Source of the DNA: Clostridiales bacterium
Lineage (GTDB): Bacteria > Bacillota > Clostridia > Christensenellales > Aristaeellaceae
Direction of reading: 5' to 3'
Assembly: GCA_015056205.1 (NCBI GenBank)
Contig: SVGS01000016.1
Location: 2,174 to 66,173 of the forward strand
DNA: 64,000 nt
Positions within the stretch are counted from its first letter, which is position 1; each line of letters opens with the position of its first letter. Shown in pieces: positions 14,326 through 32,607 of the stretch. The position numbers and the translations under genes are program-made. The notes under the pieces were generated by a model. It had not been told where the DNA came from. It made no database searches and worked only from the letters and a program-made list of their open reading frames with translations.

Positions 14326-14447
14326 AGGTCATCCTCCCCTGATTCTGTTTTTCGTTCAGCGGCAGGGCCGGTTCATCGTTCCCCTATTCCGCCCTTCTTT
14401 ATCCCGGACCCGGATCATAGCATGGATAGTCTTCATCTTCCCAATCA

Positions 14448-15878
14448 TTATTCATCCGGAATCAGGCGGATATCGGGCTTCCAGTTTTTCATGGCCCGGC
14501 GCCCCTCCGCTGTGACCGGACGGATCCATTTTCCCCGGAACAGGTGCACCTGCATCATCACATAGCGGATCGGCTCATCCGCGTAGCAGAGCGCAAACAC
14601 GGCCAGCGTCGGCCATTTCAGAACCAGGCCGGATACGCAGACGCAGGGGATGACCATCACCCACATGAATACGATTTCCAGCACCGTTCCGTACGTAGCG
14701 TCGCCCGCAGCCCGGAATGTATCGTTGTGCGTCCAGTTTCCCATCCGGATGAATGCGGCTGCCGCATAGATGCACAGCATGCCGAAGGCAAGCCGGAAGC
14801 TTTCGCCCTTCATTCCCATAACGGACAAAATCGGCTGATGCAGCGCGATCAGCGCCACCCCGAGAAGACCGATGATTCCCTGGCACAGATAGATCAGCCG
14901 CCAGGCCCGCGCATAGGCGACATCCGGCTTTCCCGCGCCGACAACCGTTCCCACCAGCACGGAGGAGGCATTCGAGAATCCCGCGAAGAAGCCGATGACC
15001 AGGCCTTCCAAAGTACGGAATACGGCCAGCGCGGCAATGGCTTCCTCCGGCTGTCTGCCCAGCACGATGTTGATGACCATGTTGCCCACGCCGACCAGCA
15101 CTTCATTGCAGATGATCGGAAAGCATTTCTTCATATAGGCGCGGACGAGTATTCTGTCCCAGCGGAAATGCTTCCGGAATGCCAGCAGGTAGGGATGGCC
15201 CTTTCGCTGTGCCGCGACGATGACCACCGTGATGCTGACCAGCTGGGAGATGACCGTTGCCAGCGCCGCGCCGCGGACTCCCATCTTCGGCGCGCCCAGG
15301 TTGCCGAAGATCAGCACCCAGTTCAGCAGGATATTGGCAAGCACCCCGCAGACGGAACCGTACAGCGGCAGCCGCACCTGGCCCGTGCAGCGCAGCAGGG
15401 CGGCCATGGCCATGGAAAACACCATCAGCGGATAGGCAAAACCCGCAATACGGAGGTATTCCGTTCCGATCACCCGGATTGAATCCTTGTCCGTATACAG
15501 CCGCATGACGGCTTCCGGAAAACAGACGGCCATCAGGCCGAAAAGGATTCCCACCGTCATCATACAGGTCAGGGTCAGCCCGTAGGAACGGTTGATTCCG
15601 TCTTCATCCTTCGCGCCGAAGAACTGGGAGAAGAACAGCATACCGCCGCCGACAAAACCCCAGTATCCGGAAAACATCAGGGAGGAGAACTGGGCGCACA
15701 GGCCGACGGCGCCGACCTCCGCCTGCCCCAGGGAGGCGATCATCATGGTATCCACCATGGATCCGGTGGTGGTCAGCAGGTTCTGAAGGGCGACCGGAAT
15801 CGCGATCAACGCGATTTTCCTCAGGAAAGGCCGCCATGGATAACCGGTTCGGCGCATCGGGACATCCTCTGCTTTCAT
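14448..15878 (-). CDS. MATE family efflux transporter
   Basis: 476 aa, about 12 TM, with a typical MatE N-terminus (ALIAIPVALQNLLTTTGSMVDTMMIASLG). Its start codon shares one base with the upstream stop (TGATG). Confidence 0.9.
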   Translation of the reverse strand: MKAEDVPMRRTGYPWRPFLRKIALIAIPVALQNLLTTTGSMVDTMMIASLGQAEVGAVGLCAQFSSLMFSGYWGFVGGGMLFFSQFFGAKDEDGINRSYGLTLTCMMTVGILFGLMAVCFPEAVMRLYTDKDSIRVIGTEYLRIAGFAYPLMVFSMAMAALLRCTGQVRLPLYGSVCGVLANILLNWVLIFGNLGAPKMGVRGAALATVISQLVSITVVIVAAQRKGHPYLLAFRKHFRWDRILVRAYMKKCFPIICNEVLVGVGNMVINIVLGRQPEEAIAALAVFRTLEGLVIGFFAGFSNASSVLVGTVVGAGKPDVAYARAWRLIYLCQGIIGLLGVALIALHQPILSVMGMKGESFRLAFGMLCIYAAAAFIRMGNWTHNDTFRAAGDATYGTVLEIVFMWVMVIPCVCVSGLVLKWPTLAVFALCYADEPIRYVMMQVHLFRGKWIRPVTAEGRRAMKNWKPDIRLIPDE

Positions 15879-17806
15879 CAGTACAGGCTGTTGATATAAT
15901 TCGTCAGCGCTTCCCGGTCATAGAGGTGATCATAAGTTCGGATGACATAATCCGGTTCCACGCCCGGATCCACATCGTAGTACGCGCCGTTGATCATGAA
16001 GGAGATGCGCAGCGGCCCGGAGACAGAGAAGGAGGTTCCCCAGGCCGTGGTCAAGGGAAGAACCACGCAGCTGCCGCCGCGGGATTTGCTGCCGAGCAGT
16101 TTGACATTGCCGTCCATCTTGAAAGCCCACGGAACCAGGTTGCCGCAGGAGAAGGAGACCGGGGAGATCAGGCAGTAAAGGTTCAGCCCGCGCCCCGCCA
16201 GCGTATCCTGCTCATCAAACTCCCGGTCCAGATTGACATCCGCCCGGAAGACCGTGGTTGTTTCCGCCCCGCTGAAGGAATCCTTAACGGACAGCTTGGC
16301 ATCCCCAAGGAACCAGCACAGCAGGTAGACCGCCGCGGCCGCGGCGCCGCCGGTATTACAGCTCAGATCCAGCACGACGTTTTCAACAGGGCTGTTTTCC
16401 CGGGTGATCTGCCGGTGCGCATGGATGATCTGGCCGCAGGTATCGATTGCGGAAACGTGCGCTTCCGGATCGCCGTAATAGTCCGCGCCGGTGTATTGGA
16501 AGGTGTCCATCGTGACATAAGCAGTGTTTCCCACCTCATAATAGCCGGTGCCGGAGCCTTCCGTCATGGCGGGATACTGCTTACGGAGAGCGGTCAGCTT
16601 TTCCTGCAGGTTCAGGAAGGCGGCGTTGGAATAGCCCCTGCTGATCGCGGCGGTTGGCTTTTCCAGCAGGAAAGAGTCTCCGTAGTAAGTGGAATGGCCG
16701 TCGTCCAGCCACAGGCTCACCATGTCGCGAATCGCCTGGTCCGCTTTGACAGTATCCTCCCCCATCAGAGCCTCATACATGCCGGTTTCGAGAAAAAACA
16801 TCATGAAACTGTCGATATCGTGGGTTTCCCTGAGACCGTACAGGTGATCCAGCTCCATGGCCAGCTCCCGCACGGCAAAATCCCGCAGGGGCAGGCTGCG
16901 GCCGCCTTTTTCGCCGGCCAGATAGGTGTTCAGGAGGGACGGCTCCGCCAGCTTCTTCTCAACCATCTGCATCACCTGCACCATCACGGCCGCCTGGTTC
17001 TGTTCTGTATCAGCGCCGGAATCTGAATACACACCGCTTTCCGTCAGCTCCGCAAACACACTCATCAGGGCTGTGTTCCTGGCAACGGTTTCATTCATAG
17101 AATCCACATGGGCCAGGATCAGATTCTTCCCGTTGAAGAACAGACCCAGCCCCCGGTTGTTCAGGAAGAAAGCGGACAGCGTCTGGGCAGGGACCAGGTA
17201 CAGGCCGTCCTGCGCCAGCATCGGAATACCGTATTCCTTCAGGTCAAGCATGACCGGCTCGCCCTTGCGCTCGCGCGCGCTGACGCTGGTCAGCAGATAC
17301 GGACGGCCTTCCTTATCCGTTTTGTAGACGCTGCCGAGCACACCCAGATAATCCAGCTCTTTGCTGAAGTTCAGGAAACCATAATATTCCGGCCAGACGA
17401 TCCGGCTGTTTTCAAAGTTGAAGACCGTCGTGCTGCCGTTTTCCCGGGTGAACATGACAATGCCGGTATCCGGATTCACTTCCGCCGTGATCTGATAATC
17501 CGCATCCATGTTCACCCAGAGATAGTTCATGAACGCCATGAAATCTTTCAGATCCATGAAAGGAAGATCGTCCACCCCGTCCGCGAAGTACAGCGGGAAT
17601 TCCCCGGGCCAGAGGAAATCAAGGCTCGCCAGGTAAAAAGGGTAATCCTTTCGGACGAGCTGATGCTCCGCGCCGGTTTCCCACCGGGACGGAAGGACTT
17701 CTGTCTTTTCCGTTTCTTCAGCCAAAGATCCGTATACCGGGCACATCAGCGACAGTATCAGCAGGAAGGCGATCAGCTTCTTCACATCCATATCTCCTTG
17801 TTTCAC
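15878..17806 (-). CDS. Secreted S41-like peptidase family protein
   Basis: Signal peptide (KKLIAFLLILSLMCPVYGSLAEE). VVLDLSCNTGG resembles the S41 DLRxNxGG motif. The likely true start is GTG 17785, 8 nt after AAGGAG; 17806 and 17791 are alternatives. Confidence 0.65.
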   Translation of the reverse strand: MKQGDMDVKKLIAFLLILSLMCPVYGSLAEETEKTEVLPSRWETGAEHQLVRKDYPFYLASLDFLWPGEFPLYFADGVDDLPFMDLKDFMAFMNYLWVNMDADYQITAEVNPDTGIVMFTRENGSTTVFNFENSRIVWPEYYGFLNFSKELDYLGVLGSVYKTDKEGRPYLLTSVSARERKGEPVMLDLKEYGIPMLAQDGLYLVPAQTLSAFFLNNRGLGLFFNGKNLILAHVDSMNETVARNTALMSVFAELTESGVYSDSGADTEQNQAAVMVQVMQMVEKKLAEPSLLNTYLAGEKGGRSLPLRDFAVRELAMELDHLYGLRETHDIDSFMMFFLETGMYEALMGEDTVKADQAIRDMVSLWLDDGHSTYYGDSFLLEKPTAAISRGYSNAAFLNLQEKLTALRKQYPAMTEGSGTGYYEVGNTAYVTMDTFQYTGADYYGDPEAHVSAIDTCGQIIHAHRQITRENSPVENVVLDLSCNTGGAAAAAVYLLCWFLGDAKLSVKDSFSGAETTTVFRADVNLDREFDEQDTLAGRGLNLYCLISPVSFSCGNLVPWAFKMDGNVKLLGSKSRGGSCVVLPLTTAWGTSFSVSGPLRISFMINGAYYDVDPGVEPDYVIRTYDHLYDREALTNYINSLY

Positions 17807-17943: not shown

Positions 17944-18027
17944 AATCGGGATATCAGAGGGATACTGATTTGCAATCCGGCCTGTAAGGAACCGGGAAAC
18001 GACTGACAAAAACAGAGGAGGATGTCC

Positions 18028-19770
18028 ATGAACCGGAATCGACTGTACGATGCGGCATTTGCCTTCCGGGCATTGAAACTTTGGGATAAGCTGGCGGATG
18101 ACCAGATTTTCGCGATTCAGATGAAGGATCAGATCTGCTATATCAGTATAACGGGAATGCTGGGGGAGCATTATTCCCTGGGGGTTTATCCGGGTCAGGA
18201 AGGCATCGACAGCTTATGGCGAATCTATCAGATGTCCGCTGTATCAGAAAGCGAAGAGATGGCCGCGTTTTTTGGACGTTCTGCACTGATTTGTGCATTT
18301 GTTCCCAGGGATGAACTTGAACCCGAATCGCTCGCGGTTCTTTCCCCTTATTTGAAAGCTCGCGGAATGTCCATACGCGGTAAAAAAGCTCTTTGGCCTC
18401 AGATTCTCCGGTGCCGTCCTTACCGTGAGTTCGTGTATGCGTATGGCGAAGCGGATGCGGAGACGATGACCGAAGCCCTCGAAGCCGCCTGCTGGCTGAG
18501 CGGAAACTCCGGACGGCCGATCGATACGCTGGCGCATCTGTCTGAACACGATCAGACGCTGCCCCTGCTGCGCCGGGAAGGGGATTCCTGGAAAATCGAA
18601 AATATGCCCATGCCGCCGGAGCCGGATATCTCCTATCCCATCGGGCATACTTTCAATGAGATGTATACAGCGCGGGTCCGAAAACTGGAAAAGACAGGAT
18701 CCTGGGCCTGCAAAATCAGGCTGGATCCTGTCCTGAGAGGAGCGGATGGCATAGAGGAGAAAGTACTGCCCTGGATGCTGCTGACTGTGGACCTGGATAC
18801 GGGAAGAGAGATTCCTGTCCAGCCGGTCCGGGACTACGAGACCCGGACAGAAGTGATGCTGGACAAGATGATGGAAGCCATGTTCCGGGAAAATGTCTGC
18901 CCGAAAGCCTTCTGCGTTTACGATGAACGAACCTTCTCGCTGCTGGAGGACTGGAGCGCTGAGATGGGTATAGCGCTTTCCATGGAAGAAGAAATCCCGG
19001 AAGAACTGGAAAATCTGGAAGACTTCGCGGATGCGCAGGCTTATATGGGCGAAGAGGATTCCATGCAGTTCATGGAGGAAATGCTGGATCTGATGCTCCT
19101 CCTTCCGGATCAGGAACTGTTTTTGAATCAGCCCGAGCTTGCGGAATATATCGCGCACTTCAGGGAGCTGCAGCTTCATCTGGATACGCCGGAAAGTATT
19201 CGCGCCAAAGTCAGCGAGATTCTGGAAAGATATGACAAATTTCAGAGCCGGCAGCAATCAGGAGCCGGCAAAGCCGGAAAAAGCACAGGTAAAAAAAGCA
19301 AAGGCAAAAAAGGCAAAAAAACAACCGTCCCGGAGAAATCCCTGGTGATCAGCGTATCTCTGGATACCGGGTGTTACCGGCATATCCGGATTTCCGATCA
19401 GGCGCTGCTGGAAGACCTGTCCCTGGCGATCCTGCGCGCTTTCAATTTCGACAACGATCATCTTCACGGCTTCTTTATGGATAATCAGGCCTACAGCCCC
19501 TGGGATGCCTACTACTCCCGCGGCAGTGAAGAGGGTCCGGCAACAGATCAGGTCACCCTGGCGGAAGCGGGAATGACGGCGGGGAAAAAGTTTAAATACG
19601 TCTTTGACTTCGGGGACGATTGGACCTTCCAGTGCAGGGTGCTGCGGGAGCTGGACGAAATCACTGCCGAGCCGGTCATTATCCGCAAAAAAGGCGAAGC
19701 GCCGCCCCAGTACCCGGAATGGGATGAAGAAGACTGGGATGAAGAGGACTGGGACGACGATGATGAATGA
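18028..19770 (+). CDS. Plasmid pRiA4b ORF-3-like (MM3350-like) domain protein
   Basis: The C-terminal domain includes HLHGFF and KFKYVFDFGDDWTFQCRV. There is a Lys-rich linker and an acidic, Trp-rich tail (EWDEEDWDEEDWDDDDE). GGAGG lies 7 nt before ATG 18028; the track start is 18022. Confidence 0.8.
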   Translation: MNRNRLYDAAFAFRALKLWDKLADDQIFAIQMKDQICYISITGMLGEHYSLGVYPGQEGIDSLWRIYQMSAVSESEEMAAFFGRSALICAFVPRDELEPESLAVLSPYLKARGMSIRGKKALWPQILRCRPYREFVYAYGEADAETMTEALEAACWLSGNSGRPIDTLAHLSEHDQTLPLLRREGDSWKIENMPMPPEPDISYPIGHTFNEMYTARVRKLEKTGSWACKIRLDPVLRGADGIEEKVLPWMLLTVDLDTGREIPVQPVRDYETRTEVMLDKMMEAMFRENVCPKAFCVYDERTFSLLEDWSAEMGIALSMEEEIPEELENLEDFADAQAYMGEEDSMQFMEEMLDLMLLLPDQELFLNQPELAEYIAHFRELQLHLDTPESIRAKVSEILERYDKFQSRQQSGAGKAGKSTGKKSKGKKGKKTTVPEKSLVISVSLDTGCYRHIRISDQALLEDLSLAILRAFNFDNDHLHGFFMDNQAYSPWDAYYSRGSEEGPATDQVTLAEAGMTAGKKFKYVFDFGDDWTFQCRVLRELDEITAEPVIIRKKGEAPPQYPEWDEEDWDEEDWDDDDE

Positions 19771-19805: not shown

Positions 19806-19834
19806 TTGACGGCGAAATCCGAAAAATGTATATT
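19806..19834 (+). promoter_or_regulatory. Strong SigA-type promoter of the partner-switching operon
   Basis: TTGACG (19806-19811), 17-nt spacer ending in TG, TATATT (19829-19834). AGGAGG RBS lies before ATG 19918. Confidence 0.65.
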
Positions 19835-19917
19835 ACCATTGGCATTTTATGTCAATCGCAACGGATTTCCAATACTCTGACCACAGGCAAGATTAATCAT
19901 CAGGAGGCCCGAACAGG

Positions 19918-21432
19918 ATGATCCGGAAGCTGAAAGAAAACCCTGCCATAATCGGACTGGTTTTTACGGTTGCCATCGCGCTGCTTGCGCTGGCCATGAC
20001 CGGGGTGGCCTACATCAATCCGGATGTTTTTTCGCGGATGCAGACTTTCCTGTTCGACTGCGGCGTGGATGCGATCGGGGCGCTGATTTCCGCAGGACTG
20101 TATTACGGATGCATGAAGCAGAAAGGGGAAGGGACGGACGCGTTCCGGAGACTGAATCTTTTTGTCAGCGCCGGGTTCGCCGTCAATTTCCTGCTTTATT
20201 TCACAGCGGGGATTCCGGGGCAGACCGTTTTTCCCTTCATCTTCGCGATGCTCAGCAAGCTGTTCGATCTGCTGATGATCTATTATTTCTATCAGTATGT
20301 GCGGAAGACCCTCGGCTTTGAAGGGAAGCTCGCTCTGTGGGCGGATAAAGGGATCCCGATCCTGATGGCGGGGGAAGCCCTGGTTCTCCTGACCAATATT
20401 TTCTATCCGCTGACTTTCTCCATCAATGCACAGGGATTCTATCAGTCCGCTGAACTTTCGATCATCGAGGATATCTGCCTCATCGTGACATCGGTCATTA
20501 CGGTGATCCTGATCTTCCGGTGCAAACGTCCGGTCAACCAGAAGATCGCCGGCCTGACGTTCATCATCCTGCCGCTGATCACTTACCTCATGGTCGGGGG
20601 AACCTTCGGCTACGCCTCCCAGTACGGAATGATCCTGGTCTCCCTGATTATTATGTACTGCATCATTTTTAACGAAAAGAGCAGCAAACTGGCCGCCACG
20701 GAAACCGAGCTCAACATGGCGACCCGCATTCAGCTGGACGCCCTGCCGCCCTTTACGCCGGAATTCCCGGATCATCCGAATGTGAACCTGCGGGCCAGCA
20801 TGCATACCGCCAAGGAGGTAGGCGGCGATTTCTTCGATTACTTCGCCATTGACGATAACCGGATCTGCTTCCTCATCGCCGATGTATCCGGCAAGGGCAC
20901 GCCGGCGGCGCTGTTTATGATGACATCCAAGACCATGATCAAGGACTACGCGCTGACCCAGGGAAGCACGTCGGGGATTTTCACCTCCGTCAACGCCCGC
21001 CTGTGCGAAAACAACGAAGCCGGGATGTTTGCCACTTCCTGGATCGGTATTCTGGACACGCGGACGATGACCCTCCAGTACACCAACGCCGGGCACAATT
21101 ATCCCATGATCCAGCGCAAAGGCCAGCCCTGTGAGGAAATCAAACAGAATCACGGACTGTTCCTGGGCGGAATGGAGTTTACGCGTTATAAGCAGGATGA
21201 GATTCAGCTCGAACCGGGCGACCGGCTGCTGCTGTTTACCGACGGTGTCGTGGAAGCCCACGATAAAGGAAAAAATCTTTACGGCAACGAACGCCTGCAG
21301 CAGGTGCTGGACGGCGCCAGGGACTGCCCGGGCGAGCAGGTGCTGGACCGTATTTTCGACGATGTGAACCAATTCGCCACGGGAGTTCCCCAGTTCGATG
21401 ACATCACCATGGTCATTCTGACCATTCAGTGA
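19918..21432 (+). CDS. Membrane-bound PP2C-family (SpoIIE/RsbU-type) serine phosphatase
   Basis: The N-terminal ~250 aa are polytopic. The C-terminal PPM domain has EVGGDFFDY, FLIADVSGKG, LLLFTDGVVEA and DDITMVIL. Confidence 0.9.
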   Translation: MIRKLKENPAIIGLVFTVAIALLALAMTGVAYINPDVFSRMQTFLFDCGVDAIGALISAGLYYGCMKQKGEGTDAFRRLNLFVSAGFAVNFLLYFTAGIPGQTVFPFIFAMLSKLFDLLMIYYFYQYVRKTLGFEGKLALWADKGIPILMAGEALVLLTNIFYPLTFSINAQGFYQSAELSIIEDICLIVTSVITVILIFRCKRPVNQKIAGLTFIILPLITYLMVGGTFGYASQYGMILVSLIIMYCIIFNEKSSKLAATETELNMATRIQLDALPPFTPEFPDHPNVNLRASMHTAKEVGGDFFDYFAIDDNRICFLIADVSGKGTPAALFMMTSKTMIKDYALTQGSTSGIFTSVNARLCENNEAGMFATSWIGILDTRTMTLQYTNAGHNYPMIQRKGQPCEEIKQNHGLFLGGMEFTRYKQDEIQLEPGDRLLLFTDGVVEAHDKGKNLYGNERLQQVLDGARDCPGEQVLDRIFDDVNQFATGVPQFDDITMVILTIQ

Positions 21433-21469
21433 CAAAGGGAGAGTATTTTTTTCGAAGGAGCGGAACGTG

Positions 21470-21880
21470 ATGTCTGAAGAATCTGTACTGAGAATCCCCG
21501 CGAAGACGGAAGGCATGGACCTCATTCTGGCCTTTGTCAGCTATCTTCTGGATCTGAACGGCTGTTCCGGCAAGGCCCGCACACAGCTGCGAACGGCCGT
21601 GGAAGAAATCTATGTCAACCAGACCCTTTACGCCTATCCGTCGGGAGACGGCTGGGTGGAAATTCGCGGCTGCGTGGAGAACGGCACGGCAGCCTTTACC
21701 CTGATCGACGGCGGAACGCCTTTCGACCCCCTGGCCAGGGAGGATCCGGACATCCTGCTTTCCGGGGAAGAGCGGGGCATCGGCGGCCTGGGAATCTACA
21801 TGGTGAAGACCATGGTGGACGAGCTGGCATACGAATACCGGGACGGATGCAACCGGCTGATGATGCGCAAACAGCTTTGA
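21470..21880 (+). CDS. Anti-sigma-factor-type GHKL serine kinase (RsbW/SpoIIAB-like)
   Basis: About 136 aa with an N-box region (EEIYVNQ), a G1-like motif (IDGGTPFD) and a G2 motif (GIGGLGIYMV). GTG 21467 is an alternative start. Confidence 0.85.
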   Translation: MSEESVLRIPAKTEGMDLILAFVSYLLDLNGCSGKARTQLRTAVEEIYVNQTLYAYPSGDGWVEIRGCVENGTAAFTLIDGGTPFDPLAREDPDILLSGEERGIGGLGIYMVKTMVDELAYEYRDGCNRLMMRKQL

Positions 21881-21923
21881 AAAAAGCTTTGAAACCAAAT
21901 TCAACAACAGGAGGAAACACAAA

Positions 21924-22220
21924 ATGACACTGACCACAGACAAAAGCGGGACGAAACTGACGGTTCACCTTTCCGGTGAGCTCAACACCATGACCGCGCC
22001 GAACCTGACCGCGCTCCTGGACAAGGAACTGGGCGGCGTAAAAGAACTGACCCTGGATTTCGCAGAGTGCGACTACGTTTCTTCCGCCGGACTGCGGGTT
22101 CTGCTGGCCACCTTCAAGCAGATGAAAGCGGCAAAAGGCACCATGGCGCTGGCCAACGTCGGGGAGAACTTCCAGGACGTACTGAAAAACACAGGCCTGG
22201 ACGCGGTGTTCGGCATCTGA
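21924..22220 (+). CDS. STAS-domain anti-sigma-factor antagonist (copy 1)
   Basis: 98 aa with the conserved phosphorylatable-Ser motif DYVSSAGLRVLL. Confidence 0.9.
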   Translation: MTLTTDKSGTKLTVHLSGELNTMTAPNLTALLDKELGGVKELTLDFAECDYVSSAGLRVLLATFKQMKAAKGTMALANVGENFQDVLKNTGLDAVFGI

Positions 22221-22263
22221 AACCACACAGCGCGCAGCTTCGGCTGACGGGAGAGACAGACAC

Positions 22264-23979
22264 ATGAAAAACGGCTTTTGCGAGAAGAAATTCAGCTCCA
22301 TGCTGATCTCCGGCACCTTCACCAAAGCGGTGATGTACCTGATGCTGCTCAGCGACAGCATCATTGCCGGACATTTTATCGGCCCGTCCGGCGTTGCCGG
22401 CATCAACGCAATCACACCGGTGACGGCCATTGTGACCTTTTTCGGGGACCTGGTATCCACAGGCGTCGGGATTGTCTTTACCCGGGAAGTCGGCGCCATG
22501 AAGAAGGACCGGGCGAATGAGATCTACAGCCAGGGCCTGATCATCAGCATCGGCATGGGCCTGCTCTCCGCGCTGCTGATCCTCGCACTGCAGAATACGT
22601 ATTTCGCCGTAAGCGGCATCACGGGCGAGATCCTGGACCGGGCGCTGGAGTACTACCGCCTGGTTCCGATCAACGCCTTCCTGACCATTGTCATCTTCTA
22701 CCTGGAGCAGATGGTCTACAGCGACGGCGACGAGCTGTGCAACAACATCTGTTACGGATTCCAGGTCGGCGGAAACATTATCGCTTCCATTCTTCTGACC
22801 CGAACCCTCGGCATGAAGGGTATCATCCTGGGCTCCGTGATCGGAAACAGCCTGGGAATCCTGACCTGCTTCTGGCACTACTTCCGGAAGGAAAACACGC
22901 TGCGCTTCAAATGGCACCTGTCCTTCAGGGACTTCCTGCTGACCTCCCGGTACAGCATCGTGGACTCTTCCGTCTATATCTGCTGGGGTATCATGGACTA
23001 TGTGATGATCGGCTTTGTATCCAGCCGCTTCGGCAATGCCGCGCAGGTCACCCTGGCGGTGGTGGTCAACCTGATTGAGTTCAGCGTCGTGATGGACGGC
23101 GTGGGCATGGCGCTCCAGCCGCTGATCAGCACCTACTTCGGGGAGAAGAACCATGTGCTGATCAAACGGATCATGAAATCGGGCGTCAAGGCCGCGGTCG
23201 CGGAGGGCGTGGTGGTAACCGTGCTGATCTGGATTTTCACGAAGCAGTTCTGCGGCCTGTTCGGAATCCGGGAAGAAGCGGCGCTGACCCCGGCGATCAC
23301 GGCGCTCCGGATTGTATCCCTCGGGTTTACCTTCTGCAGTATGGTGTCCCTGACGACATCGTACTATATGCTGGTGGACAAGATCGCCATGGCGACCACC
23401 TTCGCGTGCCTGCAGAACGGCATCCTGTATATTCTCCTGCCGGTCCTCGGAGGACTGGCCTTCGGGGTGAACGGACTGTGGGCAGGCTTTGTGGCATCGC
23501 CGATCCTGACGCTGATCATTGCCTTCACCTATGTGTATCTGCGGTTCGGGAAAGCGAATTTCCCGTACCTGCTGAAGGATATGGATTCCGAGATTGTGGT
23601 GATGGACGATACCCTTTCGCCGGAATCCGCGGTGCACCTGTCGGACAAGGTCCGGGACAGCCTGCTTGCCCATCAGTATAAGAGAACCGCAGCCAACAAC
23701 GCGGCCCTCTTTGTGGAGGAAATCGGCCTGACCATTCTGGACCGGAACAAAAAGGCGAAGAAACCGCTGCTGGTCGAACTGTCCCTCTTCTTTGAAAAGG
23801 AATCGGTTCTCATCATCATACGCGATTCCGGAATTCTGTTTAACCTGACGGAATCGGATGTCCAGGTCGGCGAGCTGAGCAGCTTCATCCTGAGCGGCCT
23901 GATGGAAGCGCACCGGGAAAAAGCCTATCTCATAACCACTGGCTACAACCGGAACATGATTCGCTTCGCGCAGGCGTAA
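22264..23979 (+). CDS. MATE-type transporter with a C-terminal degenerate GHKL (RsbW-like) domain
   Basis: Residues 1 to about 440 form a 12-TM MatE-like region. Residues 440-571 are soluble and align by eye with the neighbouring kinase, but the G2 box GxGxG is replaced by GELSSF. Confidence 0.8.
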   Translation: MKNGFCEKKFSSMLISGTFTKAVMYLMLLSDSIIAGHFIGPSGVAGINAITPVTAIVTFFGDLVSTGVGIVFTREVGAMKKDRANEIYSQGLIISIGMGLLSALLILALQNTYFAVSGITGEILDRALEYYRLVPINAFLTIVIFYLEQMVYSDGDELCNNICYGFQVGGNIIASILLTRTLGMKGIILGSVIGNSLGILTCFWHYFRKENTLRFKWHLSFRDFLLTSRYSIVDSSVYICWGIMDYVMIGFVSSRFGNAAQVTLAVVVNLIEFSVVMDGVGMALQPLISTYFGEKNHVLIKRIMKSGVKAAVAEGVVVTVLIWIFTKQFCGLFGIREEAALTPAITALRIVSLGFTFCSMVSLTTSYYMLVDKIAMATTFACLQNGILYILLPVLGGLAFGVNGLWAGFVASPILTLIIAFTYVYLRFGKANFPYLLKDMDSEIVVMDDTLSPESAVHLSDKVRDSLLAHQYKRTAANNAALFVEEIGLTILDRNKKAKKPLLVELSLFFEKESVLIIIRDSGILFNLTESDVQVGELSSFILSGLMEAHREKAYLITTGYNRNMIRFAQA

Positions 23980-24005
23980 AGCGCGCGGCGGAAGGAGACT
24001 GGCGG

Positions 24006-24641
24006 ATGAATGTATATGATTTTGACGGTACGATCTTTCCCGGAGACTGTTCCATCGGTTTTTTCTTCTGGTGTCTGAAAAGCCACCCGAAGCTGTGGTT
24101 CACCTATTTCCCGAAGACGATTAAAAACATCCTTCTGAGAAAAAAAGGAAAGATCAACGAAGCGCAGATGCAGCGGGAGTTCTTCGGCTATCTGACGCTG
24201 ATCCACGACTTTGATCAGCAGATTGAACGGTACTGGAACAAAAACGAAAAGAAAATCTCCGCCTGGTATCTGGCGCAGAAGCGGCCGGACGATCTGATTA
24301 TCAGCGCGTCGCCGAACTGCATCATCGAGCCGATCGCGAACCGGCTGGGCGTGCGGTTCATGGCCACGGATTTTGACCGGGAATACGGGGTTTTTCTCAA
24401 TAAAATGAAATACGCCAAGGAAAAAGCCAGGTATATCATCGACCAGGGCTTTCCGGTGATTGAAAATTTCTATTCCGACTCTCTCGCCGATACCCCGCTT
24501 GCCCTGTGCGCCGAAAAGGCGCATCTGGTCACCAACAACGCCAGCACCGTGACGGACTGGCCGAAGCTGGACGCGGAAACCATGGAGAAGGTTAAGCAGA
24601 AGATCGACACGGGCTGGAACAGTTATGTAAAAGAGGACTGA
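24006..24641 (+). CDS. HAD-IB family hydrolase/phosphatase
   Basis: N-terminal DxDxT motif (VYDFDGTIF), followed by IISASP and a late Asp motif (YSDSLADTP). Confidence 0.85.
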   Translation: MNVYDFDGTIFPGDCSIGFFFWCLKSHPKLWFTYFPKTIKNILLRKKGKINEAQMQREFFGYLTLIHDFDQQIERYWNKNEKKISAWYLAQKRPDDLIISASPNCIIEPIANRLGVRFMATDFDREYGVFLNKMKYAKEKARYIIDQGFPVIENFYSDSLADTPLALCAEKAHLVTNNASTVTDWPKLDAETMEKVKQKIDTGWNSYVKED

Positions 24642-24644
24642 CAA

Positions 24645-26234
24645 GTGTATATCGTCATTTACGACTTTGGCACCAGCACCGTCAAAACCTGCCTGTTTGA
24701 GATCGGTTCTGAGATCCGCCTTGAGGCAAGCGCCGCCGCAGACTACGGCCTCTACATTTCGGACGGCGGAAGCGCGGAACAGGATACGGAGGAATGGTGG
24801 GCAGCGTTGTGCTCCACCACTCGCGAACTGTTCCGGAAAACGGACGTCACCCCCCGGCAGGTCAAGGGCATGGCTTTCTGCTCCCAGATGCAGGGATCGG
24901 TTCTCGTGGATAAGCAGGGAAACGCCCTGCGGCGGCCGATGAGCTATCTGGATCAGAAGGGCGCCAAAGAATTCAAGGAATGTATGGGCTCGGGCGTGAT
25001 CAAAGTGTCCGGATGCAGCCTGTACAAGCTCGGGCGGAACCTGATCGTCAATTATGCCGGCTCAACCAGCGCCAAGGATCCGGTCTGGAAATACAAGTGG
25101 GTGGAAAACAACGAGCCTGAGGTTTTCAGAAGAATATACAAATGGCTGGATGTGGGCGACTATCTTACCTCGCGCTGCACAGGCAGGATTGTGAGGACGG
25201 CCGACACCGCTTTCGCGACTTTCCTTTATGACACGCGGAAGGGAAAGGAAGGCTGGAACAAGGGCCTGCTGAAAATGTATAAAGTCAACCCCGACCACAT
25301 GCCGGAGATCATTGACTGTACGGACCTGGCCGGCAGGCTCACCGGGAAGGCCGCGAAGGATCTGGGACTGCCGGAAGGCATTCCTGTTTACGGCGGAGGC
25401 GGCGACATGACTTTTGTCAACATCGGCGCCGGATGCACAAAACCGGGAGACACCCATATCTACATCGGAACTTCCGGATGGGTTTCCACCTTCATGAATC
25501 GCCAGGCCGTTGACATCAACGCGATGATCACCGGCGTCCTGTCGGCCAGAAAAGGATTCTTTAATTACTACGCGGAGCTGGAAACTGCCGGAAAATGCTT
25601 TGAATGGGTCGCGTATCACCTCGCGCTGGATGAAGTGGGCGTGTATATGAATCACACGAAAGTCACCGACCTGGAGAAGAAATGGCTGAGCCTGTACGAC
25701 TTTCTTTCCGCGGAAGTCGATAAAGTCCCTCCGGGGGCCAACGGCGTCATCTTTACCCCCTGGCTCCACGGCAACCGCTGTCCGTTTGAGGATTCCCGGG
25801 CGGGCGGGATGTTCTTCAACATCCGAATCGGGAACGGCAAGCGGGATATGATCCGGGCTGTTCTCGAAGGGATTTGTTATCACCTGCGCTGGCTGCTGGA
25901 GAACGTCATGAAGAAAGTGAAAACCTCCGATACCATCCGGTTTGTCGGCGGGGGCGCCCTGTCTCCCGTTACCTGCCAGATGCTGTCGGATATCACCGGA
26001 CGCAGAATCGAGACGATTTCCAACACCCAGGAGGTCGGCGCGATCGGCACAGCGCTTGTTGTGGCCGCGGGAATTCAGGGGACGGATGTGCTGGATCTGG
26101 CGCCCCGGCTGGTAAAAGTCCGCCATACCTACGTTCCCAACCCCGCGAACCGGGAAGTGTACGAACGCAACTACAGCGTTTTCAAAGGATTATACAAGGC
26201 CAACGCTGCCGCTTTCAGGAAACTGAACGCCTGA
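24645..26234 (+). CDS. FGGY-family carbohydrate kinase
   Basis: N-terminal IYDFGTSTVKTCLF (DxGT..K) and C-terminal FVGGGALSP. GTG start lies 3 nt after the HAD stop, with an AAGAGGA RBS. Confidence 0.88.
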   Translation: MYIVIYDFGTSTVKTCLFEIGSEIRLEASAAADYGLYISDGGSAEQDTEEWWAALCSTTRELFRKTDVTPRQVKGMAFCSQMQGSVLVDKQGNALRRPMSYLDQKGAKEFKECMGSGVIKVSGCSLYKLGRNLIVNYAGSTSAKDPVWKYKWVENNEPEVFRRIYKWLDVGDYLTSRCTGRIVRTADTAFATFLYDTRKGKEGWNKGLLKMYKVNPDHMPEIIDCTDLAGRLTGKAAKDLGLPEGIPVYGGGGDMTFVNIGAGCTKPGDTHIYIGTSGWVSTFMNRQAVDINAMITGVLSARKGFFNYYAELETAGKCFEWVAYHLALDEVGVYMNHTKVTDLEKKWLSLYDFLSAEVDKVPPGANGVIFTPWLHGNRCPFEDSRAGGMFFNIRIGNGKRDMIRAVLEGICYHLRWLLENVMKKVKTSDTIRFVGGGALSPVTCQMLSDITGRRIETISNTQEVGAIGTALVVAAGIQGTDVLDLAPRLVKVRHTYVPNPANREVYERNYSVFKGLYKANAAAFRKLNA

Positions 26235-26269
26235 AGACCGCCGAAGGCAAAGAACAGGAGGGAAAAAAC

Positions 26270-26569
26270 ATGATTATCACCAAAACTCAGCATAACGGAA
26301 GCCTGACGATCGCCCTGGACGGCCGGATGGACATCACCACCGCGCCGGACCTGGAGCGGGAGATCAAAAACCTGGACGGCGGCGTGACCGAACTGATCAT
26401 GGACTTTGAAAAGCTGATCTATATTTCCTCCGCCGGACTGCGCGTGCTGCTCCTGGCCCATAAGAAAATGCTCAAGCAGGGCGGCACCATGAAGGTGATC
26501 CATGTCGGTGATCTCGTGATGGAGGTCATGAAAGCCATGGGATTCGCGGATATTCTGACGATCGAATAA
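26270..26569 (+). CDS. STAS-domain anti-sigma-factor antagonist (copy 2)
   Basis: 99 aa with the motif IYISSAGLRVLL. About 38 of 98 positions are identical to copy 1 in a gapless hand alignment. The track ORF 25874 is over-extended. Confidence 0.88.
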   Translation: MIITKTQHNGSLTIALDGRMDITTAPDLEREIKNLDGGVTELIMDFEKLIYISSAGLRVLLLAHKKMLKQGGTMKVIHVGDLVMEVMKAMGFADILTIE

Positions 26570-26606
26570 CGCGCACGGGATAAAAGAATGAATTCCTTCA
26601 CAAAGA

Positions 26607-26638
26607 AAACGCCGGTGAGTCGTCACCGGCGTTTTTTT
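26607..26638. terminator. Bidirectional rho-independent terminator
   Basis: Stem aaacgccggtga, loop gtcg, stem tcaccggcgttt, then a T-run. An A-run lies upstream. It sits between the convergent STAS and MFS genes. Confidence 0.85.
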
Positions 26639-26642
26639 GCGT

Positions 26643-28037
26643 TCATCGGGAAACCGCCCTCCGGAACCGGATATGTCGCAGCCTTTCCAGGATCCCGGCC
26701 AGCATCTGCCGGGGCGTTCCGTCCCGGTCGTTTTCCAGCGGCGGAACCAGCAGCAGCGCCACCAGCAGCCGCAGCACAACGCCGATGATCACCAGGACCT
26801 GCAGACGGTCCGGCCTTCCGGAAAACAGGCCGGCGTTTTCCCAGAATTCCAGGAGCGCCCCGCCGCAAAGGGTGCCGAAGGCTACGCCCACCAGGGATGT
26901 GATGCAGGCAAAGATGGCGATATAGGAGGGACGCGCTTCATCCGGAGAGGCGGAAAGCTGCATGCTGTTCGCCGCCAGATTGCAGCCGCTCCAGCAGGCG
27001 GCGCCACAGAAATTGCGCAGCAGCACCGGCCAGATGCTTCCCGGCACGGAGAACAGATAGAACGCGTCCGTCAGAGAAGTCGCGACGGTGGAAATCAGCA
27101 TGACGCTCCGGCATCCGTAGTGATTCATGGCCTTGCCCCACCGGGACATCACCAGGATCGTGGCCACCGCGGCCGCCGCGGTGCCGAAAACCGTCATCTG
27201 CATGAAGGACAGGCCCATCTCATTGATGGAGTACCTTCCCAGATACGGCCCGGTCAGGTTGGAGGCAAAGCACCAGGCGGTCCACATCACAATCAGGCGG
27301 CAGAAGGGCCGCTCCTTCCGGATCCGCTTCAGCACGGCGCCCATGTGCAGCTTCCGGGGAGCGTCGCTGTATTTTTCCTCACACAGGCCGAAGCACAGCA
27401 TATCCAGCATGCCCAGAAAGCCCCCCAGGGCAAAGACGATGACGTACCGGGTGGGTACGGGCAGGGTATCCAGCATCCAGGCCGTCAGAAGGCCGAAGGC
27501 CAGATTGAATCCCGCGATCAGCATATCCCGGAAGGAGAACCATCTTCCCCGGAGCCGGGCCGGCGCCAGGTCGGAAAACCACGGGAGCCAGCAGACATTG
27601 ATGACCGCCCCGCAGCAGGAGGAAATCCCCAGCAGAAAAATCATGGTCCAGAGCGGGAGCCACGCGGGATTTGTCGGAATCACCAGGGGAATCAGGCCGA
27701 AGAGGATCCACAGGGCTCGGGAAAAAAGCCCCAGGGTCAGCATATAGCGTTTTCGCTGATGGGTACGGTTGACCAGCATGGAAAAGGGAATCTGCAAAAG
27801 GGCCGCGGCCTGCGGAATCCCGTTGATGAGCCCGAAGGCCAGATCGCCCGCGTGCAGCTCATTGGCCAGGCCGACCATGGCGGTCGTTCCTCCGCCGCAG
27901 ATAATGCCGTGCAGATTGCCGAAAAGATTGGCGAGCAGAATCAGATTCAGGCTCCGCCGAATGACCTTCGGCAGCTGAAATTCATCATAGAGGAGGGAGA
28001 GGGCCGACGTTCCCGGCTTCCGAAGATGAATCCGCAT
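26643..28037 (-). CDS. MFS transporter (possibly glycoside/oligosaccharide importer)
   Basis: About 464 aa and about 12 TM. The start is set at ATG 28037; the 46 aa upstream in the track ORF are Pro/Arg-rich and non-membrane. Confidence 0.8.
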   Translation of the reverse strand: MRIHLRKPGTSALSLLYDEFQLPKVIRRSLNLILLANLFGNLHGIICGGGTTAMVGLANELHAGDLAFGLINGIPQAAALLQIPFSMLVNRTHQRKRYMLTLGLFSRALWILFGLIPLVIPTNPAWLPLWTMIFLLGISSCCGAVINVCWLPWFSDLAPARLRGRWFSFRDMLIAGFNLAFGLLTAWMLDTLPVPTRYVIVFALGGFLGMLDMLCFGLCEEKYSDAPRKLHMGAVLKRIRKERPFCRLIVMWTAWCFASNLTGPYLGRYSINEMGLSFMQMTVFGTAAAAVATILVMSRWGKAMNHYGCRSVMLISTVATSLTDAFYLFSVPGSIWPVLLRNFCGAACWSGCNLAANSMQLSASPDEARPSYIAIFACITSLVGVAFGTLCGGALLEFWENAGLFSGRPDRLQVLVIIGVVLRLLVALLLVPPLENDRDGTPRQMLAGILERLRHIRFRRAVSR

Positions 28038-28158
28038 AACAACGATACCGCTCTTTCGATTCGTAATGTCAGGAATTATAATATGAATCCTGCCGGACGT
28101 CAACAGCGCAAACCGCCCCGGTCCGGGAGGCGGGAAAGATCGCGGCCACGGAGGAGAT

Positions 28159-31100
28159 TTATCCGCCGCAGGCAATCACTACGGACGCGACGGAGGCCCG
28201 CGTCAGGTCCTCCGCGCGGGACAGGCCGAACCAGGGCGTTCCGTCCGGCCGGAAATGCACCCGGCGGATTCCGTCGCACCGGAGGCTTTCCTTCAGGCCG
28301 GTCTCCGCGTGATAGGCGATCATCAGGTCCCCTTCCTCATCGGTATAAAAGGAATTATGTCCCGGGCCGTATTCGCCTTCCACGGAATAAAACGTCAGGA
28401 CCGGAACGGCGCTCTTCGTCCAGGAGGCCGGATCCAGCAGGTCGCTGCCGGTGTCCGCGGTCAGCAGACCCAGCGCGTAGGTATAGCTGTTGGCGGATCC
28501 GCCGGAATAGGTCAGATAAATCTTCCCGTCCCGCCCGAACGCGTGGGGGCCTTCGTTATTAATGGTTCCGGCCACGTTTTCCCAGCCGTACAGCGGCCGG
28601 GTCAGCAGCACCGGGTCGCCGGTCAGCCGCCAGGGCTCCCGCTCGTCCACGGAGGCGATATACAGCATGGAGCCGGAATCCAGGGGCGTGCCGATATGCT
28701 CCCGCCAGGACCAGACTACATAGGATCCGCTGCGCGCGGAGATATACGTCATATCCAGTGTGATAGCCGTATCCGCCAGCGGGGTTCCGTCCTTCCGCAC
28801 CACGCGAACCGGGTTTTCCCAGCCGTCCGGATCCGTGATCCGCCCGGTTTTTTTCTTTTTCATGATATGGCACTGGGGTCCCCATTCATGGCCGCTGACC
28901 GCGAAGAGAAGATACAGCTCACCGCCGATGACATGGAACTCCGGCGCCCAGAAGGTTTGCTCAAAGCCGCGCTCCGGGCTGAAGGGAAGGATCAGGTGCT
29001 CCGTGACGCCTTTTTCGAACAGTTCCTCCACCGTATCAGCCTCCCGGACATAGAGGCCGATATCATCCAGATTGTCGTTGGTCGAAATATAGTACCATTT
29101 CCCTTTCCAGGGGAAGAGAACGGGATCCCCGTAGCCTTCGGCCAGGGGGAAACGGAAGGACCGCTGGGAAACCGTGCCGCGCGCGGCGAAGCGGCCGGGC
29201 CCGCCGAAACGGACGGACGCCGGATCCCAGGCAATTTTCTTTTTCCGGACCGACAAGTCGCTGTAACGGACCAGGGCGGGAACCGCGTCCAGCGCCCGCG
29301 CGCTGTCCGCGCGGATTTCCTCCGGAACGCTGATTCCGGTATACACGACCGGGCTCCACCGGCGCAGGGCGGTTTCCGCCTCCGCCCGGCCAACCTTCAG
29401 GGACGTGGAGACGCAATCCGCGGGGAGCGAGTCCGCATCCACCAGGCCGGCGCACTCAAATCGGATCAGATCCCGGGTTTTCCACAGGAGCCGCTTCCCG
29501 GCGGCCTCTTCATCCGGCCTGCCGTCCTCGTGAATCCGCTCGGCGCAGATACAGACGGTACCGTCCTCCGCCCGGAAGATTCCGGGATTGCGGACGCCCA
29601 GCGGGACGATGGTATTTTCGGCGGAAACCCGGCCCTCCGCGAAGAGCACGCCATAGTTTTTATTGAAGGGAATCCGCCCGGTATCCTCCGTTTCGAGAGC
29701 CAGATGGACGCTGTTGGCCAGGCCGGCCGGATAATCTTCCTCGCTGACCGGCCGGGTACAGACATGAAGGACCGCCGGATCATCGCGCCAGGCTTCCCCG
29801 GCGAGCCCCTCCAGGATGGAGCCGCAGGCCCAGGGCATCAGCGCGAACCAGGTGGACGCCGGGGAGCCGTCGGGCCAGGTTTCCGTCAGCAGGCCCTCGC
29901 TGTGGCAGAAGCGCTCGGACATCCAGCCGGTTTTTCCGTATCCGTATTCCCCGTCCCGGGTATTATGGCACTGGCAGCTCCACAGCAGGGTATCCTCCAG
30001 GCGGCCTCGGATATAGGGGTCATCCCGGAAGCGCAGGTAATACGCCATTTCATCCATAACGGAAGAGGACATCGGATGGATATGCGGGTTGGTGACGGAG
30101 GTGATGCTGCCGCCGCAGCTGGACCAGCCGGCCGTGCTGAGGGGCGGCACCTGAATCGGGGAATTATAGCAGAACTTGAACGTGAATTCATAGTACAGCG
30201 CGTCCCGGAGATGGTCCAGCAGCGTTTCCCGCCGGGCCCGGTCCGCCGGATCCTCCGGATCCAGGACCGCGTGCAGATTCCGGACGGCGCGAATATAGCT
30301 CAGCACGCCTTCGGAATCGATATTTTTGTCAATATCCAACGGGCCGCCCCAGCACGCCTCATGGCGGATATAGGTTTCATGATACCAGGTTTCGCTTGCC
30401 AGCAGGGCGGGCAGATTTCCCCGTTCCCCTGTCAGGCGGACGTACAGGGCCGCGGCCGCCAGGCACCACGCGCCGGAGAAGGAATCATATTCCAGGCCGG
30501 CGCCGGTCTGGTCGGAAAAGATATAGGGATACTCGCCGTCGGCGTTCCGGCCCCGCTCCGCGCGGTCCAGCACCCGCCGCGCGAAAGCGAGCCAGTCCGC
30601 GTGTTCGGCGCCGCAGGCTTTTTCGCATTCATAAGCCTTCAGAATCAGATACACGCTCTGGCCGACCAGATACGCAGCGTGGCCGGGAACCGGCTGTTTG
30701 TCATACCACCAGCCGCGGTTGCTCCAGACGCCGTTTTCCTCCGCCAGGAAGGGCAGGCCGCTGCGGGGATTCAGGCTGCCGCCGACGATATGGCCGACGC
30801 AGTCCAGCGCCTGGGCGCGCATCGTTTCATCCCCCAGCCGCCGGGCGGCCAGAAGCATCGGCACCGCCGCCGCGAGCCCGTTGGTCCAGGCTACGGAGGG
30901 AAGAAGACGGGTTTCAAAATGCGTTCCCCGGTCGAACACAAAGCCGGCATAGCAGTGGGCGTCCGGAATCCAGGCGTCCCGGGCGACGGCGCCGGCGATC
31001 TCCCGGACGGTTTCACAGACGGTGCGCCGCCTGCGGGGCGGCTCATGCCAGAGGGCGTAAACCTGCTTCAGGACGCTGTGGATTTCCCGCTCATCCTCCG

Positions 31101-31761: not shown

Positions 31762-31771
31762 CCCTCCTTGC

Positions 31772-32566: not shown

Positions 32567-32607
32567 GCTGTTTCCCTCCGTACGCTGTTTTTTTCAGTTC
32601 GCTTTTT

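Follow-up and report, generated by a model that had tools for sequence, protein, structure and literature searches.

What does a partner switch control when no sigma factor is encoded beside it? Partner switching is the textbook route to sigma-factor control, and the cognate sigma factor sequestered by the kinase is usually encoded in the same operon. The question is raised by a seven-gene operon in a 64,000-nucleotide stretch of DNA from a rumen Clostridiales bacterium (assembly GCA_015056205.1, contig SVGS01000016.1, positions 2,174 to 66,173 of the forward strand), which was analysed over its full length and is called the window here. A sequence-only reading had described the operon as a partner-switching set lacking a sigma factor and joined to a transporter and a sugar kinase/phosphatase pair. 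We confirmed this observation and found its interpretation partly supported. With a probability of roughly 55%, we propose that the operon encodes a sigma-independent partner-switching system in which the MATE transporter itself is the output.

Genes were called on the window from the open reading frame (ORF) listing, Pfam and NCBIfam. The seven genes were found exactly where they had been placed, all in the same direction on the plus strand between 19918 and 26569, with intergenic gaps of 34, 43, 43, 26, 3 and 35 nt from g1 to g7, that is, within the 3-43 nt first reported. A purine-rich Shine-Dalgarno sequence precedes every one of the seven starts. Pfam recovered the families that had been named for the seven products, in gene order SpoIIE, HATPase_c_2, STAS, MatE, HAD, FGGY_N/FGGY_C and STAS. 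The genes and the two parts of g4 are as follows.

19918..21432, plus strand: g1, membrane PP2C/SpoIIE phosphatase (Pfam SpoIIE, 1.1e-48)
21467..21880, plus strand: g2, RsbW/SpoIIAB-type GHKL serine kinase, 136-137 aa (HATPase_c_2, 5e-19)
21924..22220, plus strand: g3, single-domain STAS protein 1, 98 aa (Pfam STAS, 7e-16)
22264..23979, plus strand: g4, MatE transporter with a tail of ~140 aa, whole gene (Pfam MatE, 9e-21)
22264..23559, plus strand: N-terminal part of g4, MATE membrane domain, residues 1-432 (MatE over two stretches)
23560..23979, plus strand: C-terminal domain (CTD) of g4, residues 433-571, predicted RsbW/SpoIIAB fold (hhalign, jackhmmer, AF2, Foldseek)
24006..24641, plus strand: g5, HAD-IB-type hydrolase (Pfam HAD, 4e-10)
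24645..26234, plus strand: g6, FGGY-family carbohydrate kinase (FGGY_N, 1e-38; FGGY_C, 6e-24)
26270..26569, plus strand: g7, single-domain STAS protein 2, 99 aa (Pfam STAS, 2.5e-12)

The transporter tail and the switch proteins

The MatE match of g4 covers two stretches above the Pfam gathering score, and a crude scan counted 10-11 hydrophobic segments. By the standard MATE topology of 12 transmembrane (TM) segments, the tail should be cytoplasmic. The protein scored under every curated NCBIfam MATE cut-off (113 bits against 445), the best model being the VmrA-like PRK09575. Assignment to the MurJ/Wzx-type flippases was considered and rejected, the best matches being MatE and MATE-efflux models. 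Proteins of the g4 type carry the public labels "MATE family efflux transporter" or "hypothetical", and a few CTD fragments are labelled "anti-sigma regulatory factor" (Joint Genome Institute).

The CTD had no Pfam match even at E<=10 and matched g2 only marginally by BLASTP (E 0.03), so profile methods were required. A jackhmmer search seeded with g2 on the ORFs from 83 related loci reached the MATE CTDs, and hhalign of a CTD profile against a profile of g2-like kinases gave a probability of 89.8% (E 1.8e-6, 109 columns). A profile built from 32 diverse CTDs had RsbW (6m36) as its best PDB sequence match, in the expected register. The AlphaFold model of the CTD (AF2, 32-sequence alignment) reached a mean predicted local distance difference test score (pLDDT) of 84.4, and the best 18 matches in a Foldseek search of the PDB with this model were all SpoIIAB, RsbW or UsfX chains (E about 1e-6, TM 0.6-0.83; entries including 1l0o, 6m37, 8ih8, 1tid and 1th8). 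Several of the best matches come from complexes with STAS partners. The modelled fold of the CTD is thus that of RsbW/SpoIIAB, the Bergerat/GHKL alpha-beta sandwich.

The nucleotide-binding motifs, in contrast, are degenerate. In the window CTD, the N-box Asn is replaced by Thr, and the G2 motif GGLG reads (K/E)GLS(G/S) in the CTDs. With each GTDB species represented by a single genome, a scan yielded 80 loci that encode a 70-90% identical transporter with this tail (hereafter MATE-CTD), and the N-box Asn position holds Thr or Ser in the CTDs of all 80. When the window CTD was aligned with 63 full-length cluster representatives, this position was occupied by Leu, Val, Thr, Arg, Ile, Ser, Ala or Met and never by Asn (0/64), while the Glu just before it was invariant. 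The G2 glycines, too, were missing from all 64. Because the N-box Asn, a Mg-ATP ligand, and the G2 glycines are lost, the CTD is a probable pseudokinase. The kinase-like tail of the sequence-only reading therefore survives as an RsbW/SpoIIAB homologue and not as a kinase: the fold was found, while the N-box Asn, the glycine-rich G2 box and a Pfam match were not.

An exhaustive HMMER search found the CTD in at least 362 clusters at 50% identity. Full-length matches always formed the C-terminal end of a protein of ~570 aa, and residues E53, G91 and N130 were invariant in the family. Considering the size of the family and these invariant residues, the CTD is most simply taken to be under selection. 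A CTD profile search of metagenome proteins returned almost exclusively gene fragments on short contigs, with P0321 as an informative match. In three paralogous MATE proteins (L049:368-2122, L048:8915-10651 and L035:17969-19822, all on the minus strand), the tails are nearer to bona fide HATPase_c_2 domains (jackhmmer E 1e-27 to 1e-35), and two of the three kept the N-box Asn. Some MATE fusions may thus retain an ATP-binding kinase domain, as far as their motifs tell.

The remaining proteins supply the switch. In g1, the SpoIIE match spans positions 1-191 of the 192 domain positions and places the catalytic domain at residues 312-503; the metal-binding-type motifs GDFFD, DVSGKG, TDG and DDIT can be read in the translation, as in active SpoIIE-family phosphatases. 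Its N-terminal part (residues 1-260) has about seven hydrophobic or TM segments by hydropathy and matched no known sensor family; 18 of 22 PP2C genes in the vicinity of MATE-CTD encode an N-terminal domain of this type. The kinase g2 has intact motifs (N box EEIYVN, G1 DGGTPFD, G2 GIGGLG), which align with those of RsbW and SpoIIAB. The RsbW sequence used in this alignment of g2 and the CTD agrees with the PDB alignment of the CTD profile. By sequence, RsbW (6m36) is the closest solved relative of g2, with the motifs in register. The g2 scores lie far under the NCBIfam equivalog cut-offs for RsbW (31 bits against 155) and SpoIIAB (18 bits against 135). An alternative start of g2, an ATG at 21470, is the one called on the identical contig L001.

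Both STAS proteins scored above the TIGR00377 cut-off of NCBIfam, and g3 also had a weak NCBIfam match to MlaB. Ser54 of g3, in the motif YVSSAGLRVL, aligned with Ser56 of RsbV and Ser58 of SpoIIAA in HMMER alignments to the solved proteins. In g7, which is 39% identical to g3, the assignment of Ser54 as phospho-acceptor follows from the motif shared with g3 (here YISSAGLRVL). The motif Y[IVL]SS[AV]GLRV was present in 26 of the 29 STAS matches near MATE-CTD genes and, with F for Y, in two more; the last is listed with an unrelated motif match. Judging from their motifs, g1, g2, g3 and g7 look functional as switch proteins, and the three components of a partner switch, namely a PP2C phosphatase, a GHKL kinase and a STAS antagonist with a putative phospho-serine, all appear to be present.

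Gene neighbourhoods of MATE-CTD transporters

The seven families were mapped onto the 80 loci by tblastn and iterative searches with hidden Markov models (HMMs); the linkage counts come from contigs of metagenome-assembled genomes (MAGs), which are of uneven length. Every MAG title that names an animal source refers to the ruminant gut. The MAGs are labelled Lachnospiraceae, Oscillospiraceae, Ruminococcus and Eubacterium, and the cultured carriers are Ruminococcus flavefaciens MC2020 (L082), [Clostridium] aminophilum DSM 10710 (L029) and Ruminococcaceae bacterium FB2012 (L030, L041). A PP2C, small kinase or STAS gene lay within 3 kb of MATE-CTD in 20 of the 80 loci (25%). The clustering was tight: 13 PP2C genes were found within 1 kb of the transporter, compared with 0.4 expected from their density at 5-10 kb. 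Of the 36 loci whose contigs extend 3 kb or more in both directions, 12 had neither HAD/FGGY nor switch genes.

The seven-gene order itself was rejected as a conserved operon. The sequence-only reading had named conservation of this order in Clostridia as a point to check, and only one locus, L004 (90% identical), resembled the window: its genes 1-6 follow the window order as far as the contig shows, and the end downstream of FGGY differs. The common block among the 80 species loci was MATE-CTD/HAD/FGGY, about which the switch genes take many positions. They form an inverted PP2C-STAS-STAS-kinase block upstream (L005, L009), or the arrangement STAS-PP2C-MATE-HAD(-FGGY) without a separate kinase (L016, L017, L019 and L063, with FGGY in L017 and L019), or the arrangement PP2C-MATE-FGGY-STAS-HAD, again without a separate kinase (L024, L036). 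In these six kinase-less operons, the CTD is the sole RsbW-like partner encoded. Elsewhere, two or three MATE-CTD paralogues in tandem surround one switch block (L009, L046, L048, L049, L035). Because the arrangements of switch genes and MATE-CTD are shuffled in this way, their association points to selection on proximity and not to inheritance of a single operon.

The association also reaches beyond close relatives. Contig neighbourhoods were examined for nine distant family members with about 30-37% CTD identity, and switch genes flanked three of them, at about 35% CTD identity and all without HAD/FGGY. L088 has dCache_1-HAMP-SpoIIE, HATPase_c_2, STAS and MATE-CTD, equivalent to window genes 1-4 with a different sensor; in L089, MATE-CTD adjoins STAS-SpoIIE-HATPase_c_2; and L092 reads STAS, HATPase_c_2, HD, STAS-APH and MATE-CTD. 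Apart from these three and L086, which is described below, four of the five other members had no relevant neighbours, and L091 had only a SpoIIE-family gene ~5.5 kb away on the opposite strand.

Two further architectures were seen at these loci. At L084:7632-8618, and alike in L085, a 98-aa STAS gene stands directly before a 205-aa ORF that comprises the last two TM helices and the CTD; this pair was found on 5 contigs. The ORF is either what a deletion left behind or a STAS receptor in its own right, anchored in the membrane. In four loci, genes directly beside MATE-CTD encode an N-terminal STAS domain fused to an APH-type (aminoglycoside/choline-kinase-like) phosphotransferase:

L048:490-1677 and L048:1984-3177, two STAS-APH fusions
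L049:3304-4479, STAS-APH fusion
L062:11753-12997, STAS-APH fusion
L092:5750-6937, STAS-APH fusion

A STAS-APH-HATPase_c_2 triple fusion (L081:6643-8244) lies ~1.8 kb upstream of a MATE-CTD gene. We found no description of the STAS-APH(-HATPase_c_2) architecture.

The HAD/FGGY pair showed a different pattern of linkage. HAD and/or FGGY lay within 3 kb of MATE-CTD in 40 of the 80 loci (50%); for the loci whose downstream sequence reached 2.5 kb or more, the figure was 30 of 54. Switch genes were absent nearby in 28 of the 40 HAD/FGGY-bearing loci. Moreover, the window HAD and FGGY copies are 64-88% identical to those in many loci, whereas the PP2C, kinase and STAS proteins there are only 32-53% identical. 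For both reasons, HAD and FGGY are considered to travel with the transporter and not with the switch. Across ruminant-gut MAGs of different families or orders, MATE-CTD, HAD and FGGY together are 64-90% identical and the adjoining PP2C, kinase and STAS often 32-53%, which suggests that the transporter cassette spread horizontally within the rumen and that the switch module was shuffled separately. The sequence-only reading had tentatively placed post-translational control on the transporter, on the HAD/FGGY pair, or on both. The transporter remains a good candidate on these counts, and the pair does not.

For g5, the Pfam HAD score was 40.8 bits against a cut-off of 27, matches to TIGR01490 and TIGR01488 were under their cut-offs, motif I (DFDGT) and motif IV (SDSLAD) can be read in the translation, and no solved relative was found among PDB sequences. 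For g6, the best model was XylB TIGR01312 (280 bits against an equivalog cut-off of 380) and the best PDB match xylulose kinase (2itm). It is accordingly kept, from its scores, as an FGGY family member and not as a xylulokinase XylB. The AI-2 kinase LsrK was rejected as an identity for g6, the score of 142 bits (cut-off 528) being lower than that for XylB. The substrate of g4 is at best xylulose-like. HAD and FGGY probably act on the transported compound, a sugar-like substrate that they would convert in the cytoplasm between its phosphorylated and its free form. The sequence-only reading had put forward the export of a sugar-derived and possibly phosphorylated compound; this is speculation, with FGGY under the XylB cut-off. 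In a Coriobacteriia MAG (GCA_030537355.1, L086:8001-14062), MATE-CTD (37% CTD identity) stands with a Zn-dependent alcohol/polyol dehydrogenase, an unannotated 576-aa protein and FGGY, and with no switch genes. A gene set for polyol or pentulose catabolism would look much like this, and the layout may point to a pentulose/polyol substrate class.

Sigma-factor genes were sought at several scales. The claim that the unit lacks one was borne out, none being present in the seven genes. None was found within 10 kb on either side in the Pfam annotation already available for the identical contig L001, or in the 64-kb window by a crude six-frame search with region-2 and extracytoplasmic function (ECF) fragments. 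The same crude search of ~1 Mb of related loci gave one ECF gene, not near switch genes. In the Pfam-annotated neighbourhoods, the sole candidate was a 52-aa ORF with a weak Sigma70_r4 match (L093).

The likely output of the switch

The transporter is the most economical output, because its CTD is an RsbW homologue and because PP2C, kinase and STAS genes recur beside MATE-CTD in many arrangements. Docking of STAS on the tail is suggested by the resemblance of the CTD to a STAS-binding protein, by the clustering of switch genes with MATE-CTD whether HAD/FGGY are present or not, and by the operons in which the CTD is the sole RsbW-like partner. In the mechanism that we propose, unphosphorylated STAS would dock on the dead-kinase tail of the transporter as RsbV does on RsbW. 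Since the tail could not phosphorylate STAS, the complex would be stable and would alter transport, switching it either on or off. The soluble kinase, g2 or a trans-acting paralogue, would phosphorylate STAS at Ser54, and STAS would then leave the transporter. The membrane phosphatase g1 would sense a signal through its polytopic, variable N-terminal domain, dephosphorylate the phosphorylated STAS and so re-arm it. HAD-IB and FGGY would stand outside the switch, co-inherited with the transporter.

Several points weigh against this proposal. Two thirds of the MATE-CTD loci have no switch genes nearby, and there the switch would depend on proteins supplied in trans, or the CTD would have to play another role. 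Related loci were counted as independent in the linkage statistics, the significance of which is therefore only nominal. The kinase-less operons still carry PP2C, which implies a kinase encoded elsewhere or a non-canonical activity kept by the CTD, the latter contradicting the term pseudokinase. The sigma-factor searches were crude and gave a single positive in ~1 Mb, a low assurance of sensitivity, and the partner of g2 could be a sigma factor whose gene lies beyond the window. The model of full-length g4, made from a shallow alignment of close relatives, reached a pLDDT of only 48 and a predicted TM-score (pTM) of 0.42. Beyond domain identity and linkage, all steps of the mechanism are inferred.

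The same genes could be wired in other ways. SpoIIAB and RsbW act as dimers, and g2 might heterodimerize with the RsbW-like tail, or bind it otherwise, and hold the transporter in one state until g2 is drawn away by unphosphorylated STAS. Homology and a shared fold link the CTD to g2, their relatives of known structure are anti-sigma factors that form dimers and alternate between sigma and STAS as partners, and g2-type kinase genes adjoin MATE-CTD in L004, L046, L088, L089 and L092, all of which this arrangement would accommodate. It fits poorly, however, with at least six operons that have PP2C, STAS and MATE-CTD and no g2-type gene, and with the gene found right beside that of the transporter, which codes for STAS or a STAS fusion no less often than for the kinase. 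We regard it as unlikely. Still less likely, in our judgment, is an ordinary sigma-factor switch that shares its operon with a transporter/metabolic cassette, in which g2 would sequester a sigma factor encoded elsewhere and the CTD would be a relic or decoy. A relic would hardly form a family of 362 clusters with invariant residues, which argues for selection, and mere sharing of an operon does not account for the strong enrichment of switch genes beside MATE-CTD in many independent arrangements and in distant members. No sigma gene was seen beside any of these modules, and g2 scores far under both the RsbW and the SpoIIAB equivalog cut-offs. Nevertheless, all the sequence features of RsbU/RsbW/RsbV-type proteins are present in g1, g2 and g3, switch genes are absent from most MATE-CTD loci, and sigma genes could lie outside the window.

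The CTD could also be a docking scaffold, to which STAS tags bring small-molecule kinases (the APH fusions, and perhaps FGGY by way of free STAS), so that phosphorylation of the substrate is coupled to its passage and STAS phosphorylation only tunes the assembly. We hold this to be the least probable of the three alternatives. Free STAS proteins with a PP2C and kinase of their own are the hallmark of a reversible switch, FGGY-STAS fusions were not observed, and the APH domains may be protein kinases rather than metabolite kinases. The scaffold would, on the other hand, give a place to the STAS-APH fusions beside MATE-CTD in L048 (two), L049, L062 and L092 and to the triple fusion near it in L081. 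The commonest neighbour of the transporter gene is a small-molecule kinase gene (FGGY or APH); g7 directly follows the FGGY gene, and STAS adjoins FGGY in L024, L036 and L035.

The preferred reading, a switch acting on the transporter through its tail, can be carried further, tentatively and at somewhat less than even odds. An unnamed MATE family, which counts at least 362 clusters at 50% identity and occurs in Clostridia and in one or more Coriobacteriia MAGs, would be gated by phospho-switchable STAS proteins on a dead-kinase tail. It would be a mirror image of SLC26/SulP-STAS and the first partner switch with a transporter output, and the tail, by also recruiting STAS-tagged APH-type kinases, would serve as a general STAS receptor at the membrane. 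If this is true, a simple evolutionary route of rewiring is at hand, in which a kinase is duplicated, disabled and fused to its target. The cassette is abundant, is 70-90% identical across rumen Lachnospiraceae, Oscillospiraceae and Ruminococcus, and lies near hemicellulase and sugar-transport genes; for these reasons, the regulated flux may matter for carbohydrate handling in the rumen or for toxin tolerance.

Operon boundaries, surroundings and relation to known systems

Two signals bound the operon:

19806..19834, plus strand: promoter-like site of the sigma-70 type, TTGACG-17-TATATT (10/12 consensus positions; g1 ATG 84 nt downstream)
26603..26638, no strand assigned: intrinsic terminator hairpin (16 predicted pairs, 4-nt loop, U7 tail)

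The promoter had been called strong. It matches 10 of 12 consensus positions, and as promoter-like sites across the region were not in clear excess (8 observed against 4.5 +/- 2.2 in shuffles), the match makes it a plausible promoter and the word "strong" was dropped. The terminator hairpin was overlooked by a pattern scan and recovered by folding. Its stem has a 10-bp GC-rich core lengthened by pairing of the flanking A- and U-runs, and its fold energy is -31.2 kcal/mol (z = -4.15; 0 of 200 shuffles were as stable). Only 5 nt separate the hairpin from the stop codon of a convergent MFS gene, and the A-run on its 5' side lets it serve this gene too. The proposal of a bidirectional terminator is therefore reasonable. 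No riboswitch or leader RNA was found in the whole window with Rfam at gathering thresholds.

Directly upstream, the gene at 18022-19770 (plus strand) encodes a protein with DUF7309, DUF6930, a PRiA4_ORF3-like domain and an acidic DE-rich C-terminal tail. It is probably outside the unit, because the promoter-like site separates it from g1. The flank at 12013-17806 carries GH2, a plain MatE transporter without the tail and an S41 peptidase, and the other flank (26643-33684) carries the MFS transporter, a 1200-aa GH43 protein, an MscS channel and an ion channel. The operon is thus embedded among carbohydrate-use and membrane genes. A PTP-like phytase gene lies at 9927-10982. Farther away, at 42108-44849 on the minus strand, a 913-aa protein combines a complete RecD2-type helicase (OB_YrrC, HHH, AAA_30, SH3_13, UvrD_C_2) with a C-terminal RNase_T-family exonuclease domain.

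Among described systems, RsbU-RsbV-RsbW (sigma B) and SpoIIE-SpoIIAA-SpoIIAB (sigma F) of Bacillus belong to the same three families as g1, g2 and the STAS proteins, the closest solved relatives being RsbW, RsbV and SpoIIAA/AB. The operon differs from these modules in having no sigma gene in the unit or the window, in its two STAS paralogues, in the distance of g2 from both equivalog families, and above all in a second, degenerate RsbW-like domain that is fused to a MATE transporter. SiaABCD in Pseudomonas operates independently of a sigma factor, and to our knowledge, the non-sigma outputs of partner switches are a handful: diguanylate cyclases, a glycosyltransferase and type III secretion. 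Further sigma-independent partner switches are SypE/SypA in Vibrio fischeri and BtrU/V/W in Bordetella (PMC8256260) and HenR/All4160 in Anabaena (bioRxiv 10.64898/2026.04.08.717354). The claim of an undescribed system must thus be narrowed: sigma-independent partner switching is already established, and the term can apply to the proposed transporter-fused output alone. We found no paper on a MATE-RsbW fusion, or on a partner switch acting on a MATE transporter, in full-text literature searches, which returned only incidental co-mentions. The logic of SypA and All4160 matches our proposal, in that a kinase and a PP2C phosphatase set the phospho-state of a STAS effector whose unphosphorylated form acts on a non-sigma target; BtrV is another non-canonical case. 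In contrast to the Syp, Btr and HenR systems, the proposed target here is a membrane transporter, which would be recognized through a fused dead copy of the kinase; neither feature turned up in any described system in the literature searched.

The transporter shares two MatE repeats and about 12 TM segments with the MATE efflux transporters of the NorM, DinF, VmrA and YeeO types. Compared with these, it scores well under the curated cut-offs, has a 140-aa RsbW-fold tail that they lack, and is tightly linked to HAD-IB and FGGY. A pairing of membrane transporters with STAS/anti-sigma signalling is likewise seen in SLC26/SulP proteins, which have a C-terminal STAS domain, and in MlaB, a STAS protein on the MlaFEDB ABC transporter. 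If our proposal is true, the operon offers a concrete case of a transporter regulated through STAS, which is relevant to the old question of the role of the STAS domains in SLC26/SulP. The polarity, however, is reversed. In SLC26/SulP, STAS is fused to the transporter; in g4, a MATE/MOP family member, the fused domain is the one that resembles an anti-sigma kinase, while STAS is encoded separately as a free, putatively phosphorylatable protein with its own kinase and phosphatase.

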